Both the position numbers and the translations under genes were made by a program. The notes below the pieces were generated by a model that saw only the letters and a program-made list of their open reading frames with translations, was not told where the DNA came from and made no database searches. This document shows positions 47,489 through 52,970 of a stretch of DNA of 64,000 nt, one piece after another. Every line of letters starts with the position of its first letter. Positions within the stretch are counted from its first letter, which is position 1. This DNA comes from Streptosporangiales bacterium (lineage in GTDB: Bacteria > Actinomycetota > Actinomycetes > Streptosporangiales > WHST01), in assembly GCA_050698355.1 (NCBI GenBank), contig JBOHBN010000209.1, positions 663-64,662 of the forward strand. The letters are read 5' to 3'.

Positions 47489-49600
47489 CTAGTCCAGGTG
47501 CCTGGGCAACTGCTTGCCGAGCCAGTGGTCGAGCGTTCGCACGTACGTCGCGGTGAGGTGGCCGGCGTTGCGGTAGACGAGAACGTTGCCGATGACGGCG
47601 GGACACTCGCCGTTCTGGCAGAGCTTGGGCGTCGGGTCGATGACCTTGACGCCGTCGGTCTTCTTCGCCGCCTCCGCGCCGACCGGCGCGAAGTCGAACC
47701 CGGTCTTCTTCGAGAACGCGCAGGTGCGCAGATCCTTCAGGTGTTGGGAGACGCAGTCGGGCATCTCCTGCGGCGGATGCGGCACCTCGTGCACCACGAA
47801 CACCCGGGCGCCGGTCGAGCGCAACCGCTCCAGCGTCCTGGCGTACCCGGCCTCGAACGCGTTGTCGCTCGCGTCGGAGGGGAGCTTGCGGTCGCCTTCC
47901 ATGACCGTGTAGTCGGTCAAGCTGCTGGTCAGGACCATGTCCGGCGCGATCCCGTCGATCTGTTGCAGCGCGTCCTTCCGCCAGTCGCCGCACTCGGTGT
48001 ACGCGCGCCGGAGGTCGGCCTTGTATCTGGCGATGTCCGCCGGCGGGCAGCCGGCCTTGGCGAAGACGACGAGCCGCCAGTGCCTGTCCTTGGCCACCTT
48101 GTTCAGCGCGGTGGACCACTGCATGGCATGCGAGTCACCGAACAGCACGACCGTGTGCTTGCTCGACTTGTCGCCGTACACGCACTTCTTCGCCGACGTG
48201 TCCTTGGTGCCGGCCAGGCACCCGGAGTTCTGGATCGGTCCACGGTCGTCGGCGGCCTCCTGCGGGGCGGGGCGCACCGCGGCGGCCCTCGGCTGCGGCG
48301 GCTTCGTCTGCTCCAGCGCCCGCGCGCCCTTCGCGTCCTCCTTCGAGGCGGTCGGCATGGTCGGCGTGGCAGCGTGCAGCCCCGCGCCGAGCAGCACGAC
48401 GAAGCAGGTCGAGGCCATCCCGAAGCGCAGCGCCCTGGCCGGAACCCGGCTGAAACCACGGAACCGCCGGAACGGCTCCTCCACGAGGCGGTGCGTCAGC
48501 AGGGCCGGCACGTACGACGCGGCGACCACAAGCACCGCCTGCAGCGCGGACAGGTGCCCCCAGTGGGCCTGGGCGAAGACGATGAACGGCCAGTGCCACA
48601 TGTACCAGACGTACGAGACCCGGCCGACGTGTCGAAGCGGCGGGAGGGACAGGAGGCGGTGCGGCCAGGCGGTCGTCGTCGTGGAGCCGGCCACGATGAG
48701 CGCGCCGGCGCCGAGCGTCGGGACGAGCGCCAGGGCGCCGGGGAAGCTCGTGTCGTCGCCGAACGCGACGGCCGACCAGCCGATCGCCGCGAACCCGCAG
48801 GCGGACAGCAGGGCTGCGAGCCACCGCGGCAGCGTGCGGGGCGAGGCGAGCACGAGCGCGAGCACCCCGCCCAGAGCCAGCTCCCAGCCCCGGGTGAGCG
48901 TCGAGAAGTACGCCCGACCGGCCTCCGCGTACGTCAGGTAGACGCACCAACCGAAGGACGCGGCCGCGACGGTTGCCAGGGCACCGGCGAGCACCGGCCG
49001 GATGTTGCGGCCGGAGCGCCGCCACCACCAGGTGACGAGCAGCAGCAGTGCGGGCCACGCCAGGTAGAACTGCTCCTCGACGGCCAGCGACCAGAAGTGC
49101 TGGACGGGGCTTTCCTGCGTGCCCGCCGCGAGGTAGTCGATGGCGCGGGAGACCAGCCGCCAGTTGATGACGTACACGCCGGACGCGATCACGTCGCCGG
49201 CCACGATGAGCCGCCGTACCGGGGAGAACAGCGCCCAGGAGAGCGCCGCGACCGCGACCAGGACGACGGTGAAGGACGGCAGCAACCGTTTCGCGCGGCG
49301 CGCGTAGAACCCCCGGATCGAGATCGTTCCGGTGCCCTCGATCTCGCGCAGCAGCAGCCCGGTGATCAGGAACCCGGAGATGACGAAGAAGATGTCGACG
49401 CCCACGTAGCCGCCGGTGACGAACGGCAGGCTCGCGTGGTACAGCAGCACCGCCACCACGGCGATGCCGCGCAGCCCCTCCACGTCCGGGCGGAAGGCCT
49501 TCCTGGCGGGCTCCCTGCGCTGCGACCCGGCTCGGTGCCGGCCGGCTGGCCGTCGACCAGTTGCGTGCGCGTGCGGGACGCGCTCACGAGAGGGTGCCAT
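47489..49600 (-). CDS. Acyltransferase-3 family membrane protein fused to a C-terminal SGNH hydrolase domain (OafA/YrhL-like)
   Basis: 703 aa. N-terminus LRGIAVVAVLLYHASLPFVTGGYVGVDIFFVISGFLIT, about 10 TM segments, then C-terminal VVLFGDSHAMQW...NAGHLT. Confidence 0.85.
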   Translation of the reverse strand: MAPSRERVPHAHATGRRPAGRHRAGSQRREPARKAFRPDVEGLRGIAVVAVLLYHASLPFVTGGYVGVDIFFVISGFLITGLLLREIEGTGTISIRGFYARRAKRLLPSFTVVLVAVAALSWALFSPVRRLIVAGDVIASGVYVINWRLVSRAIDYLAAGTQESPVQHFWSLAVEEQFYLAWPALLLLVTWWWRRSGRNIRPVLAGALATVAAASFGWCVYLTYAEAGRAYFSTLTRGWELALGGVLALVLASPRTLPRWLAALLSACGFAAIGWSAVAFGDDTSFPGALALVPTLGAGALIVAGSTTTTAWPHRLLSLPPLRHVGRVSYVWYMWHWPFIVFAQAHWGHLSALQAVLVVAASYVPALLTHRLVEEPFRRFRGFSRVPARALRFGMASTCFVVLLGAGLHAATPTMPTASKEDAKGARALEQTKPPQPRAAAVRPAPQEAADDRGPIQNSGCLAGTKDTSAKKCVYGDKSSKHTVVLFGDSHAMQWSTALNKVAKDRHWRLVVFAKAGCPPADIARYKADLRRAYTECGDWRKDALQQIDGIAPDMVLTSSLTDYTVMEGDRKLPSDASDNAFEAGYARTLERLRSTGARVFVVHEVPHPPQEMPDCVSQHLKDLRTCAFSKKTGFDFAPVGAEAAKKTDGVKVIDPTPKLCQNGECPAVIGNVLVYRNAGHLTATYVRTLDHWLGKQLPRHLD

Positions 49601-49654: not shown

Positions 49655-50143
49655 CTACGGGCTTCGCTCCATCGTCACCACGACCTGTGCCGGGCGGAAG
49701 ACGCGCGACCCGTGCGCGAAGCCGCGCCGCCGCAGCTCGACCACGCGGCCGGCGGGTGCGCCGCCCGTAGCCGCGGAGGCGACCGCCTCGTGCCGGTCGG
49801 GGTCGAACACGTCGGCCTCGACCTGGGTCACCCCGTGTCGCGCGAGCACGTCGAGCAGCTCGTCGCGCACCGAGCGGACGAACTGCGGGTCCGCGCCGTC
49901 GTAGCGATCGAGCCGGTCGATGACCAGGGCGAGGCCGTGAATGAGCGGTTCGAGGAACTCCCGGAACGGGCCGTCCTTGGCCTGCCGTAGCTCTTCGCGC
50001 AGCGTCTCGATCGCCTCGCGCTTGCCCCGGTCGTCGAGCAGGCGCCGCTGGAACAGGTCGCGGAGCTCATCCAGCCGATTGACGACATCGACGTGGCCGG
50101 CATCCTCGACATAGTCGACCTGCTCTTGATCAGACGAGCTCAC
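49655..50143 (-). CDS. Short GrpE-like nucleotide-exchange factor
   Basis: GTG at 50143 overlaps the Hsp70 stop (GTGA). The 162-aa product has a coiled-coil (NRLDELRDLFQRRLLDDRGKREAIETLREEL), then GVTQVEADVFDPDRHEAVASA...VVELRRRGFAHGSRVFRPAQVVV, which matches the GrpE C-terminal beta-domain pattern. Confidence 0.7.
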   Translation of the reverse strand: MSSSDQEQVDYVEDAGHVDVVNRLDELRDLFQRRLLDDRGKREAIETLREELRQAKDGPFREFLEPLIHGLALVIDRLDRYDGADPQFVRSVRDELLDVLARHGVTQVEADVFDPDRHEAVASAATGGAPAGRVVELRRRGFAHGSRVFRPAQVVVTMERSP

Positions 50144-51684
50144 TCGACCTCCACGCTGCCCATCGCGACCCGCATCTGGTCGACCTCGGAACGGTCCAGG
50201 TTGAGCGGGCGGTCCAGCTCGATCTCGCCGAGCGACTTGTTGTTGGTGAGGTCGACGATCTCGACGTGCACCACGCCGTCGATGTCGTAGGACATGATGA
50301 CCTTCATGTTCGACCCCCTCCGCAAGCCGGTCGGCAGGTCGATCGGTCGCTCCAGCAGGATCGTGACGTACTCCGGCTCCGGGTCGTCGCCCTCGGTCAC
50401 CTGGAACAGCCATTGCCGCTGATCGTCCGACAGCGTGTGGAAGGTGTTCTCGTGCTTGCACGGGATCTTGCTGTTCTTCGGGATGACCGGGAAGTTGCGC
50501 AGCGGGTCACCCTCGTTCCCCCCGCCGGCGACGGCGAGCACGCCGAGGCTCTGCGAGGTGACGTCCTTGATGGAGATAGCCGCCGCTTGAGCGCCCTCGC
50601 CGCGACTCCTCTCGGTGGGGCCGCTTCCCTCGGCCGCTGCCATGTCGGCGACGGTCGCGGCGCCGAGCGCCACCGCCTCGTCGGGATTGATCCGCGACTC
50701 CGGCACCAACCCCCCGACCCGCTCGATCATCTGCGCGATCATCGGCATCCGGGTCGAGCCACCGACGAGCAGGATGCGGTCGATCTGTGACCACTGGAGT
50801 CCCGCGTCGTCCATGACGCCTTCGAGCGTCACCTCCGTACGGTCGAGCAGGGGCTTGGTCATCGCCTCGAACTGCTCGCGGGTCACCTGGATGCGGTGGC
50901 TGCTGCCGCCTGCGGTGATGAACACCGACGCCTGACCCACGCCCGTGAGCGTGCGCTTGGCGAGCTCGCACTTCTCCCGCAGGTCGGTCTCCATCGCGCC
51001 ACTGTCGAGCAGGTCGGGCCCGCCGGCCCGCCGCACCTGGTTCGCCACGTGCTTCATCAGCTCGTTGTCGAAGTCGAAGCCGCCGAGGTTGCGGTCGCCG
51101 TCGGTGGCGATGACCTCGAACTCGCCCTTGTCGACCTTCATCGCGGTCACGTCGAACGTGCCGCCGCCGAGGTCGTAGACAAGGATCGTGCCGCTGTCGA
51201 GGCCCTGCAGCCCGTACGCGACGGCGGCGGCGGTCGGTTCGTTGATGAGGCGCAGGACGTTCAGGCCGGCGATCTCGCCCGCGTCCTGGGTCGCCTTGCG
51301 CCGCGCGTCGTCGAAGTACGCCGGGACGGTGATGACGACGTCCTCGATGCGTTCGCCCTGCAGCAGCTCGGCGTCGTCGACGAGGTGCTTGAGGATGAAC
51401 GCCGAGACCTGTTCCGCGCGGTACTCGTTGCCCTGGGTGTCGACGAACCGCCAGTGCGGGTCGCCCATGAAGCGCTTCACGAACGCGGCGGAGTCGTCGG
51501 GCATGGCCGCCGCGCTGCGCTTCGCGGTGGACCCGACCAGCACTTGGCCGCCCTGCGACAGCACCACGGAGGCCGTGATGTTCTCGCCTTCCCGGTTGCG
51601 CAGGATCTGCGGCGTGCCGTCGCTGTCGACGGCCGCAACGGCCGAGAAAGTCGTACCCAGGTCGATTCCCAGGGCTCGCGTCAC
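50140..51684 (-). CDS. Atypical Hsp70-family ATPase lacking the alpha-helical lid (HscC-like)
   Basis: NBD motifs GIDLGTTFSAVA, VITVPAYFDDARRKATQDAG, DLGGGTFDVT and LVGGSTRMP. A beta-sandwich SBD follows (IKDVTSQSLGV...) and the protein ends about 130 aa later. The start was set at GTG 51684 (VTRALGIDLG) because the 45 upstream codons of the track ORF translate a repeat element. Confidence 0.85.
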   Translation of the reverse strand: MTRALGIDLGTTFSAVAAVDSDGTPQILRNREGENITASVVLSQGGQVLVGSTAKRSAAAMPDDSAAFVKRFMGDPHWRFVDTQGNEYRAEQVSAFILKHLVDDAELLQGERIEDVVITVPAYFDDARRKATQDAGEIAGLNVLRLINEPTAAAVAYGLQGLDSGTILVYDLGGGTFDVTAMKVDKGEFEVIATDGDRNLGGFDFDNELMKHVANQVRRAGGPDLLDSGAMETDLREKCELAKRTLTGVGQASVFITAGGSSHRIQVTREQFEAMTKPLLDRTEVTLEGVMDDAGLQWSQIDRILLVGGSTRMPMIAQMIERVGGLVPESRINPDEAVALGAATVADMAAAEGSGPTERSRGEGAQAAAISIKDVTSQSLGVLAVAGGGNEGDPLRNFPVIPKNSKIPCKHENTFHTLSDDQRQWLFQVTEGDDPEPEYVTILLERPIDLPTGLRRGSNMKVIMSYDIDGVVHVEIVDLTNNKSLGEIELDRPLNLDRSEVDQMRVAMGSVEVE

Positions 51685-51698
51685 TGTCCCACCGTCCT

Positions 51699-51791
51699 TA
51701 CCGAGGAGATCATCACTAGCTGGACCGCCGAGACGCCATTGTTGCAGTTCAGCGAGCCTCGACAGTCGGGCAACTAATGATCTCCTCGGTA
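51699..51791 (-). ncRNA. Copy 1 of a ~90-nt conserved rod-like hairpin element (candidate cis-regulatory RNA or palindromic DNA element), sense to the downstream Hsp70 gene
   Basis: 15-bp terminal arms TACCGAGGAGATCAT/ATGATCTCCTCGGTA. By hand alignment its reverse complement matches 57850-57938 without gaps at 69 of 89 positions, and the stem differences are compensatory. The 5' arm covers the stop codon of the J-like gene. Confidence 0.5.
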
Positions 51792-52970
51792 CCGAAGCCT
51801 CTTCCGGTTGCGCTTCCAACCCGGAACTCGCGTGTTGAAGTACAGCAGCACAAGGATGCCAGCCGCCAGGACGAATGCGGTGACACCGGTGCCCAGCTCA
51901 TCTCCCAGCCAAGTCACGCCTGCGATGACGAGCGCGACGGCCAGGCCGAGCACGACGAGCAGGAACCTACGCATCAGCCCGGTCGCGACGTGCCACTGCC
52001 GCCGCTCGCACCACCGCAGGTACCCGCGTACGTCGCCCGCTCGATCGCGTACGTCCGGATCGTCGGTTACCCGCTCGGCCTCCTGCACGAGGCCGCGCAT
52101 CCGGGCGATCTCGGCCTTGCTGGTCACGAAGTAGTTGCTGCCGTCGCGATACCTGGGTACGAGCTCGGCCAACGTGATCAGGCAGTTCCCGAGGGCCACG
52201 CCCGCGGCCTGCTTGTCGTGGCCGCGCTCCACGATGTCCTCGAGAACCGGACGCGCCTGCGCCGGCTTCCCGGCTTGCATCCAGGCGTTCGCGGCGGCGA
52301 GGCGCGGCCTCTCGTCGCTACGGTCGAGGTCCGCGGCCGAGGAGTAGACGCCGGCCGCGTCGTCCCACTGTCCCAGCGCCTCGTGGATGCCGCCGAGGTC
52401 CAGGTGGAACTGCAGGTAGTTCGGCGCGAGCTCGATCGCCCGCTGCATCTCGAACAGCGCGTCGTCGGCGTTGCCCAGCCCCAGGTTCGCGCGCGCCAGG
52501 ACGCTCCACGCCGCCGCGGACCGCGGGTCGCGCTCGCGCGCCTCGCGCGCGGCGTACACGGCCGACCGGTGATCGCGCTTGGCCAGGTAGTCGAACGCCT
52601 GTCCGACCCAGTCGATGCCGTCCTGCGGCGGCTGGGGTGCGGGCCGCTGCCGCGGCGCGGGGGCCGGCTGCCCTCCCGGCTGCGGCGCCGGTTCGGGTCG
52701 GGGCTCGGGTTCCGGCTCGCTCGGCCCCCTCTCCAGCCTGCGCAGGTACGCGGCGCGGCGCGCGTCGTCGAGCAGGACCTCCTTGGCCTCGCTTAGGAGC
52801 TGGACCTTCTTCTCGGCCTCCTGGCGGCGGGCGAGGTCGGGGTTGCTCGTGCGCTTCTGCCAGGTGCGCAGCTCCTGCTTGACCCGCCGGGAGATCTCCT
52901 CGGCCGCTGCACCGCGTGGTATTCCGAGGGCCTCGAAGTAGTCGAGGGCGGGGCCCCCGTGGTCGTTCAC
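51774..52970 (-). CDS. J-domain-like / TPR-repeat protein with two C-terminal TM helices. The HPD motif is replaced by NPD.
   Basis: 398 aa. The N-terminus is LDYFEALGIPRGAAAEEISRRVKQELRTWQKRTSNPDLARRQEAEKKVQLLSEAKEVLLDDARRAAYLRRL. A Pro-rich linker follows, then TPR-like AWSVLARANLGLGNADDALFEMQRAIELAPNY.. and C-terminal FLLVVLGLAVALVIAGV / AFVLAAGILVLLYF. GTG start after GGGAGG. Confidence 0.7.
   Translation of the reverse strand: MNDHGGPALDYFEALGIPRGAAAEEISRRVKQELRTWQKRTSNPDLARRQEAEKKVQLLSEAKEVLLDDARRAAYLRRLERGPSEPEPEPRPEPAPQPGGQPAPAPRQRPAPQPPQDGIDWVGQAFDYLAKRDHRSAVYAAREARERDPRSAAAWSVLARANLGLGNADDALFEMQRAIELAPNYLQFHLDLGGIHEALGQWDDAAGVYSSAADLDRSDERPRLAAANAWMQAGKPAQARPVLEDIVERGHDKQAAGVALGNCLITLAELVPRYRDGSNYFVTSKAEIARMRGLVQEAERVTDDPDVRDRAGDVRGYLRWCERRQWHVATGLMRRFLLVVLGLAVALVIAGVTWLGDELGTGVTAFVLAAGILVLLYFNTRVPGWKRNRKRLRYRGDH

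Follow-up and report, generated by a model that had tools for sequence, protein, structure and literature searches.

This analysis concerns three co-directional genes on the minus strand, at positions 49655-52970 of a 64,000-nucleotide stretch of DNA (hereafter the window) from a Streptosporangiales bacterium (GenBank assembly GCA_050698355.1, contig JBOHBN010000209.1, positions 663 to 64,662 of the forward strand). In the direction of transcription, they encode a protein with a J-like domain, tetratricopeptide repeats (TPR) and two transmembrane (TM) helices, an Hsp70 that lacks the alpha-helical lid, and a GrpE paralogue; together they are referred to as the triad. The list of open reading frames (ORFs) and the sequence bear out the coordinates of the three genes and the GTGA overlap between the Hsp70 and GrpE genes, as given in a preliminary description of this DNA made from the sequence alone. 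The main interest of the triad is that it provides a natural, genetically paired test case for the function of a J-domain without the His-Pro-Asp (HPD) motif.

The coordinates of all features are collected in Table 1. The GTG start of the J-like/TPR gene is preceded by GGGAGG. The longest ORF of the Hsp70 gene opens at TTG 51819; because all homologues begin at GTG 51684 (MxxAxGIDLGTT) and a Shine-Dalgarno sequence lies upstream of it, this GTG is most likely the true start, giving a protein of 514 amino acids (aa). The GTG of the GrpE gene (50143-50141) overlaps the TGA of the Hsp70 gene (50142-50140), which suggests translational coupling, and the same four-nucleotide overlap, as GTGA or ATGA, is also present in related loci L004, L007, L009, L011, L015, L020 and L021. 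Searches for the consensus of a sigma-70 promoter and of an intrinsic terminator were negative.

Table 1. Features of the triad in the window and of the extended cassettes in related loci. Positions are those of the window, or of the named locus for the cassettes; the boundaries of the Hsp70 domains are approximate.
Feature	Position	Strand	Basis or remark
J-like/TPR/two-TM co-chaperone gene, 398 aa	51774..52970	-	GTG start, TAG stop; ORF, Pfam, AlphaFold2
J-like domain, aa 9-80, four helices	52731..52946	-	Pfam DnaJ, AlphaFold2 helices
N43-P44-D45 (codons AAC CCC GAC), HPD position	52836..52844	-	read from sequence
Pro-rich disordered linker, aa 82-116	52623..52727	-	predicted local distance difference test (pLDDT) <50 over residues 82-114
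TPR domain, aa 117-270, four repeats and capping helix	52161..52622	-	Pfam TPR families, AlphaFold2
Two TM helices, aa 332-378, loop GDELGTG, basic tail	51837..51977	-	hydropathy, model
Long RNA hairpin, 34-nucleotide arms	51699..51791	-	runs across the stop codon of the J-like gene to just short of the Hsp70 ribosome-binding site
Lid-less Hsp70 gene, 514 aa	50140..51684	-	Pfam HSP70, DnaK alignment, model, residue conservation
Hsp70 nucleotide-binding domain (NBD)	50635-51684	-	extended linker between NBD and SBD-beta
Hsp70 beta-sandwich substrate-binding domain (SBD-beta)	50200-50574	-	
Hsp70 C-terminal helix and tail	50143-50193	-	
GTGA overlap, GrpE start/Hsp70 stop	50140..50143	-	read from sequence
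GrpE paralogue gene, 162 aa	49655..50143	-	Pfam GrpE, phmmer, family alignment
EccC-like/effector cassette, L004	7970-11882		
EccC-like/effector cassette, L005	9171-13539		
EccC-like/effector cassette, L012	13322-17376		
EccC-like/effector cassette, L018	6079-9991		
EccC-like/effector cassette, L028	10627-15648		

The 398-aa protein has 100% identity to a protein of a Streptosporangiales metagenome-assembled genome. Its N-terminal part (residues 10-75) matches Pfam DnaJ (PF00226) with 31.6 bits against a cut-off of 27.8. In the AlphaFold2 model of the protein (pLDDT 80.4), helices at residues 11-15, 23-40, 46-67 and 69-80, with pLDDT values of 80-90, make up the four-helix J fold, and phmmer searches with the J-like protein recovered solved J-domains, DNAJC3 among them. 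The Pro-rich linker that follows varies in length and shows 17% identity between homologues. Pfam families TPR_19, TPR_2, TPR_16 and TPR_14 match the next region, where the model contains nine TPR-type helices (121-270) with pLDDT >90, and a Foldseek search with the model returned TPR proteins only, the best of them consensus TPR proteins, and no match informative on the C-terminal region. Between the TPR domain and the C-terminal helices, which are modelled at residues 305-355 and 359-380, lies a small hairpin/helix region; hydropathy is highest around residues 337-350 and 366-374, and a seven-residue loop joins the two segments. Pfam, AlphaFold2 and hydropathy agree on the Pro-rich linker, TPR repeats and two C-terminal TM helices of the preliminary description. 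By the positive-inside rule, the basic tail is predicted to be cytoplasmic, as are the J-like and TPR domains, which would be held at the membrane. The features of class A/B DnaJ proteins (the G/F region, zinc finger and C-terminal beta-sandwich) are not found in the 398-aa protein, in which only the J-domain part is matched.

The HPD motif that is otherwise invariant in J-domains is absent from this protein, and the model places N43-P44-D45 in the loop between helices II and III. Four homologues from Spirillospora and Actinomadura read N-H-P-D in the same column. Both the HPD of these relatives and the loop position in the model identify NPD as the true equivalent of HPD, and the early reading of a J-domain with NPD in place of HPD stands. 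A gap-free register, which would put HPD on Q38-K39-R40, was rejected on the same two grounds.

In order to describe the family, an exhaustive phmmer search with residues 1-82 was run against 1.84 billion cluster representatives (E <= 1e-3) and yielded 509 cluster representatives, most of them 360-420 aa long; residue statistics were taken from the best ~150 of these 509 proteins (~160 domains). At the position of the HPD histidine, these have Ala in 68 cases, Ser in 32, Asn in 28 and His in 24. Six of the 24 histidines come from one unrelated protein with six J-domains, so that histidine is present in ~18 of ~160 family domains, or ~11%. The proline is kept in 77% and the aspartate in 62%, and several flanking residues are nearly fixed (W37 in 93%, R40 in 86%, R49 in 89%, A52 in 99% and E53 in 94%), giving the family motif RxWxxR...PDLxRRQEAE. 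Mean pairwise identity is 52% for the J-like domain and 62% for its helix II-loop-III segment, compared with 38% for the TPR region and 17% for the TM hairpin. Despite the missing histidine, no other part of the protein is as well conserved as the J-like domain. Because it is the most conserved region and has a motif of its own, it is a constrained variant and not a decaying domain, and its earlier designation as degenerate was misleading. Its conserved surface is the apical region with which canonical J-domains touch Hsp70.

Two further observations were made on the members of this search. The protein with six J-domains (P0131, 679 aa) carries them in tandem, each canonical and with HPD; this unusual architecture is unrelated to the triad. 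Longer J-like/TPR members (P0148, P0156, P0230, P0255, P0167, P0194 and P0178) contain added modules that are extracytoplasmic or N-terminal, namely LprI, SH3_3, ankyrin, MORN and DUF4309, with zinc-ribbon or GYF_2 modules at the N-terminus. The extra modules of these longer members suggest that the J-like/TPR scaffold can couple to variable sensing or binding domains.

The second protein matches Pfam HSP70 (PF00012) with E = 1.3e-119 over profile positions 2-514 of 599, and its alignment to solved DnaK structures ends at approximately residue 515 of the E. coli protein. Its model (pLDDT 91.8, predicted template-modelling (pTM) score 0.88) consists of the NBD, an extended linker of low confidence and the beta-sandwich SBD, after which a single 12-residue helix at 498-509 is seen and no lid. 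All three lines of evidence confirm that the Hsp70 stops before the lid, and this is common to a family with a median length of 508 aa.

Residues of known function were compared between 121 family members and E. coli DnaK. The ATPase residues D8, K70, E171, D194, T199 and D201 are invariant, as are the allosteric residues P143, D148, R151, N170, D393 and D481 and the SBD residue Q433, while R167 is kept in 115 of the 121, and the substrate cleft stays hydrophobic. Judged by these residues, the Hsp70 is intact in both its ATPase and its interdomain allostery. Other positions set the family apart: the linker is less hydrophobic ([VLI][STA][IV]xD compared with VLLLD in DnaK) and is preceded by an insertion, a further insertion is located in SBD loop L1,2 as in HscC, DnaK E206 is replaced by Arg or Lys, and an acidic EGDD loop is found where DnaK reads QGERKR. 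Lid-less DnaK constructs release peptides quickly, and client binding by this Hsp70 is accordingly expected to be short-lived.

The Hsp70 ends in a conserved tail, [LV]-[ED]-[VI]-x-COOH, with V or I at position -2 in 84% of family members (P0001-P0120; 50143-50160 in the window). The overlapping ribosome-binding site of the GrpE gene can explain this conservation only in part; as Ile is frequent where Glu-Val overlaps that site, there is some constraint at the protein level. By analogy with the EEVD motif, the tail could be a ligand of the TPR domain of the partner protein.

The third protein matches Pfam GrpE (PF01025) with E = 2.1e-14 (54 bits against a cut-off of 25.8). By phmmer, its residues 23-160 align to residues 34-170 of Thermus GrpE, and the E. 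coli and Geobacillus GrpE structures were also matched. Its N-terminal helix and bundle are shorter than those of E. coli GrpE, and the beta-domain motifs FDPxxHEAV and RPAxVxV are conserved. From this alignment, the protein is best described as a short yet complete GrpE, and not as the minimal one first proposed.

The presence of a GrpE gene agrees with the residues that line the nucleotide cleft of the Hsp70. The family keeps K55/R56 and E264/E267, where E. coli HscC has V/S and A/E. The pairs K55/E267 and R56/E264 are reported (Brehmer et al. 2001) to form the salt bridges across the cleft, two bridges that slow the release of ADP. HscC lacks both bridges and therefore needs no nucleotide exchange factor (NEF) according to Mayer (PMC8215388). 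The kept bridges would therefore account for a specialised Hsp70 that comes with its own GrpE, unlike HscA and HscC, and the triad is an exception to the view that bacterial Hsp70s with specialised roles do without NEFs.

Related loci were gathered in two ways, by looking up exact proteins and by scanning with patterns from the J/TPR alignment, and gene adjacency was determined by tblastn. The alignment scans located 13 loci in genomes and three in metagenomes, and none on viral contigs or in the phage collection; a homologue search with the whole 398-aa protein gave 10 matches dominated by TPR words. The three genes are adjacent in L001, L004-L007, L009 and L011-L021, which is every locus with enough sequence to judge, and the hosts include Streptomyces, Nocardia, Actinosynnema, Allorhizocola, Spirillospora, Actinomadura, Glycomyces, Natronosporangium, Rhodococcus and several metagenome-assembled genomes. 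In L006, the Hsp70 gene leads directly into an FtsK-like gene, with no GrpE gene before the end of the contig. The order is mostly J-Hsp70-GrpE, with Hsp70-J-GrpE in Streptomyces, in L005, in L026 and on the plasmid L028, and overlapping stop and start codons recur across the loci. The ~505-aa Hsp70 family is also found in Streptomyces, Nocardia, Rhodococcus, Nonomuraea, Actinomadura and other genera. Since all related loci that can be judged have these three genes side by side, the triad is no chance juxtaposition. It is a conserved actinomycete operon, as the proposal of triplet synteny across Actinobacteria had anticipated.

We consider it probable that the triad forms a second Hsp70 machine, which is specialised and acts at the cytoplasmic membrane, on its inner side. 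The domains, the TM hairpin and the operon support the earlier view of a dedicated three-component Hsp70 module with a predicted membrane tether. In the mechanism that we propose, the TM hairpin would hold the J-like and TPR domains in the cytoplasm beside the membrane, and the J-like domain would dock on ATP-bound Hsp70 through a family-specific interface, formed by W37, R40, PD and R48-R49-Q-E-A-E on the J-like side and by R167, N170 and the charge-inverted surface residues on the Hsp70 side. Docking would most likely still trigger ATP hydrolysis. The TPR domain may select a client or adaptor, and the conserved tail of the Hsp70 may be among its targets; clients trapped by an Hsp70 that has no lid would be held only briefly, and GrpE would then reset the cycle. 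An HPD-less domain is thus locked in an operon with one Hsp70, catalytically intact by its residues, and its own GrpE, and the relatives provide natural variants with H, N, A or S at the key position. With this operon pairing, the stronger constraint on the domain and these variants, the question of whether HPD is needed can be tested directly with three small bacterial proteins.

Several points weigh against this mechanism. The AlphaFold2 model of the J/TPR protein was built from only nine sequences and has a pTM of 0.53, and its TM topology is a prediction. The proposed interface is drawn from conservation and from the DnaK-DnaJ complex 5NRO. The sample of ~16 independent loci is small, and these loci revealed no client and no recurrent neighbour besides an optional EccC-like module. 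Exchange of H to Q or of D to N in canonical J-domains abolishes ATPase stimulation (PMC13254874), for which reason the J-like domain may only tether or regulate the Hsp70.

Such a tether, in which the HPD-less domain only anchors or restrains the Hsp70 in the manner of Pam16 and a client or another J-protein, for example the housekeeping DnaJ, triggers hydrolysis, is possible, though we lean towards doubting it. It would fit the absence of the histidine from ~89% of the family and the variation of the proline and aspartate, and 'type IV' J-domain proteins may likewise not activate Hsp70 (PMC13254874). However, the loop flanks W37, R40 and RRQEAE are more conserved than the rest of the protein, the partner Hsp70 keeps the J-responsive residues R167 and N170, and a designed HPD-less sequence does work as a J-domain (PMC13254874). 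In addition, some members with HPD occur in the same operon context, which argues for one continuous J-like function. A 2026 review states that it 'remains enigmatic' whether broken-HPD J-domains are evolutionary accidents or selected (PMC13254874).

The surroundings of the triad in its relatives bear on what the specialised machine might handle. In five of ~16 independent loci and on the plasmid L028, the triad is followed by a 905-964-aa FtsK/SpoIIIE protein whose best matches are the type VII secretion system (T7SS) ATPases EccC and EssC; the EccC-like ATPase comes directly after the triad in L004, L005, L006, L012, L018 and L028. Next in these cassettes are a protein of ~150-240 aa, an 86-aa helical protein (alignment A3) and a third protein, whose N-terminal domain of ~100 residues is shared with longer proteins and occurs free-standing or with variable C-termini, one of which is an ADP-ribosyltransferase-like domain. 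The gene arrangement is like that of a polymorphic-effector system, with small proteins resembling WXG100 proteins. L028 (positions 62145-80333 of the 102-kb Rhodococcus pseudokoreensis plasmid NZ_CP070617.1) has the extended Hsp70-TPR-GrpE-FtsK cassette beside TniB, TniQ and recombinase genes, and its location on a plasmid directly beside these genes places this cassette on mobile DNA. The description of the triad as stand-alone therefore holds for the window but not for about a third of the related loci. Separately, a large nSTAND1-WD40 gene adjoins the triad in L009 (13283-16999), and a large WD40-repeat gene and a DO-GTPase2 gene adjoin it in L004 (1776-5162 and 11895-13509); nSTAND1 and DO-GTPase2 are families described in conflict systems.

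As the operon of these relatives joins an EccC-like ATPase, WXG100-like small proteins and polymorphic effectors, an ancestral or alternative job in the handling of effector or secretion substrates is suggested. A stronger version holds that the triad is the chaperone arm of such a cassette, a T7SS-like system for export or conflict, or of a conflict system of the GTPase/STAND kind, the other genes of which lie elsewhere in the genome or were lost. We entertain this only tentatively. The directly adjoining EccC-like ATPases, the effectors with a common N-terminal domain (one with an ADP-ribosyltransferase toxin) and the nSTAND1-WD40 and DO-GTPase2 genes beside some triads favour it, as does the clustering of the window Hsp70 with two FtsK-linked loci in a crude neighbour-joining tree, the two outgroups of which are too few to settle whether HscC is the sister group. 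Computational work by Kaur, Burroughs, Iyer and Aravind (2020; PMC7159879) also found HSP70, GrpE and DnaJ/TPR modules within GAP1-N2 GTPase conflict systems. On the other hand, ~11 of the 16 loci have the triad only, among housekeeping genes, including those of Streptomyces, Spirillospora, Actinomadura, Natronosporangium and the window. The accessory proteins of the related loci (EccC-like ATPases and small proteins) and the L004 DO-GTPase2 fragment had no tblastn match in the 64-kb window, DO-GTPase, GAP1 and FNIII were not among the ten flanking genes covered by the Pfam profile scan, and no PADLOC family matched the three triad proteins at E <= 1; the scans of viral contigs and phages were negative as well. 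A signalling or conflict role, as first proposed, is possible, and nothing in the window shows such a role. That relatives join the triad to an EccC-like ATPase and polymorphic effectors points to a possible, as yet unexplored coupling of Hsp70 to secretion or inter-bacterial conflict in actinomycetes. The boldest proposal, which we think improbable but worth stating, is that the HPD-free J-like domain activates the lid-less Hsp70 through a re-invented interface and that the membrane-tethered machine provides chaperoning for an EccC-like apparatus of export or conflict, not recognised before, which delivers polymorphic effectors such as ADP-ribosyltransferases, with stand-alone triads performing a related membrane-proximal task.

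The remaining feature of the operon is the RNA hairpin between the J-like and Hsp70 genes. Its minimum free energy has a z-score of -4.15, none of 200 shuffled sequences folds as well, and it is unique within the window. In the 94%-identical relative L021, it is kept with one fully compensatory pair: the substitution on the 5' side replaces Arg by Gln in the protein and is matched by a change in the 3' arm. More distant loci, with spacers of -4 to 79 nucleotides, have no shared structure, and no Rfam family matches the hairpin. The conserved intergenic element of the preliminary description is thus real as a hairpin but common only to the closest relative, with no family-wide element. Because it is kept only there, it is a lineage-specific element outside the definition of the family; its probable effect is on how the transcript is processed, on how stable it is or on the expression of one cistron relative to the other.

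The ten genes that flank the triad in the window encode an AT3-SGNH acyltransferase, a NagA-like amidohydrolase, ABC transporter components and metabolic enzymes (Pfam). The AT3-SGNH (OafA-like) gene lies directly downstream of the GrpE gene (47489-49600, minus strand), as it does in L021 (7612-9723). This linkage probably reflects only recent synteny, since it was not found in more distant loci.

Finally, the triad was compared with known Hsp70 systems. It resembles E. coli HscC with DjlB/DjlC in that each pairs a specialised Hsp70 paralogue, which has an L1,2 loop insertion and a lid that is reduced, with a dedicated class C J-protein that has a C-terminal membrane anchor, a predicted one in the triad, and an altered HPD. 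Orthology of the two systems is nevertheless very improbable. The Hsp70 is 34% identical to HscC, not above its 36% identity to E. coli DnaK, and DjlC has no significant similarity to the J/TPR protein and none detectable outside the J region. HscC (556 aa) keeps part of its lid and has neither the cleft salt bridges nor an NEF, whereas the triad Hsp70 has no lid, keeps the bridges and is encoded with its own GrpE; DjlB and DjlC have no TPR domain and retain the histidine (HPE), which the triad protein has lost. The hscC-djlC-djlB region of E. coli K-12 (L022, 676000-690000) also encodes YbeQ and YbeT, both Sel1-repeat (TPR-like) proteins, and two DUF1266 proteins. These Sel1 proteins are a further likeness to the triad, and repeat-protein partners may be a recurring theme of specialised Hsp70 loci.

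Canonical DnaK-DnaJ-GrpE systems share with the triad the same three roles, in the window even encoded in one operon, the same catalytic and allosteric residues, and a GrpE with coiled-coil, bundle and beta-domain. The triad differs in having no alpha-helical lid, a longer and less hydrophobic linker, and a membrane-tethered J partner without the G/F, zinc-finger and C-terminal client-binding domains. No HAIR (HspR) or CIRCE (HrcA) operator was found in the window with up to three mismatches. The proteins also fell far short of the equivalog cut-offs, with 385.9 against 648 (NF001413) and 371.5 against 822.55 (TIGR02350) for DnaK, 33.7 against 377.2 bits for DnaJ_bact and at best 36.2 bits against 184 for the NCBIfam GrpE. 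Streptomyces, Nocardia, Rhodococcus and other genera possess a canonical dnaK-grpE-dnaJ-hspR operon. The triad family occurs in these genera as well. Together, these points effectively refute the idea that the triad is the housekeeping system of its organism, in line with the preliminary description. The Streptomyces incarnatus paralogues dnaK2 and dnaK3 (PMC13284173) were considered and set aside as not relevant, being monocistronic and lid-bearing.

Three further comparisons concern the J-like protein. The presequence translocase-associated motor of mitochondrial import (PAM; mtHsp70, Pam18, Pam16 and Mge1) also runs a membrane-tethered cycle with an HPD-less J-like protein, Pam16, and a GrpE-type NEF, Mge1, but its Hsp70 is full-length and Pam18 is a functional J-protein with HPD. 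The likeness is an analogy and implies no homology of assembly. DNAJC3/p58IPK and DNAJC7/TPR2 similarly combine TPR and J-domain in one polypeptide. In these, the J-domain is C-terminal with an intact HPD and the protein is soluble or lumenal, whereas the triad protein has an N-terminal, HPD-less J-like domain and two TM helices. Type IV ('pseudo') J proteins such as DNAJB13 have, like the triad protein, a recognisable J-fold with a non-conservative change of HPD, but no Hsp70 and NEF are encoded alongside them, whereas the HPD-less domain of the triad is genetically linked to one Hsp70.

The GAP1-N2 modules have in common with the triad an actinobacterial Hsp70, a dedicated GrpE, a J- or TPR-bearing partner and a predicted membrane-proximal location. 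The partner is an FNIII fusion there and a J-like-TPR-2TM protein here. With these modules on record (PMC7159879), and with lid-truncated DnaK paralogues discussed in general in a 2026 review (PMC13580251), calling the triad undescribed was too strong. The triad belongs to the specialised Hsp70 systems, of which HscC/DjlC is one example and the computationally noted modules of Hsp70 and GrpE (PMC7159879) are another.

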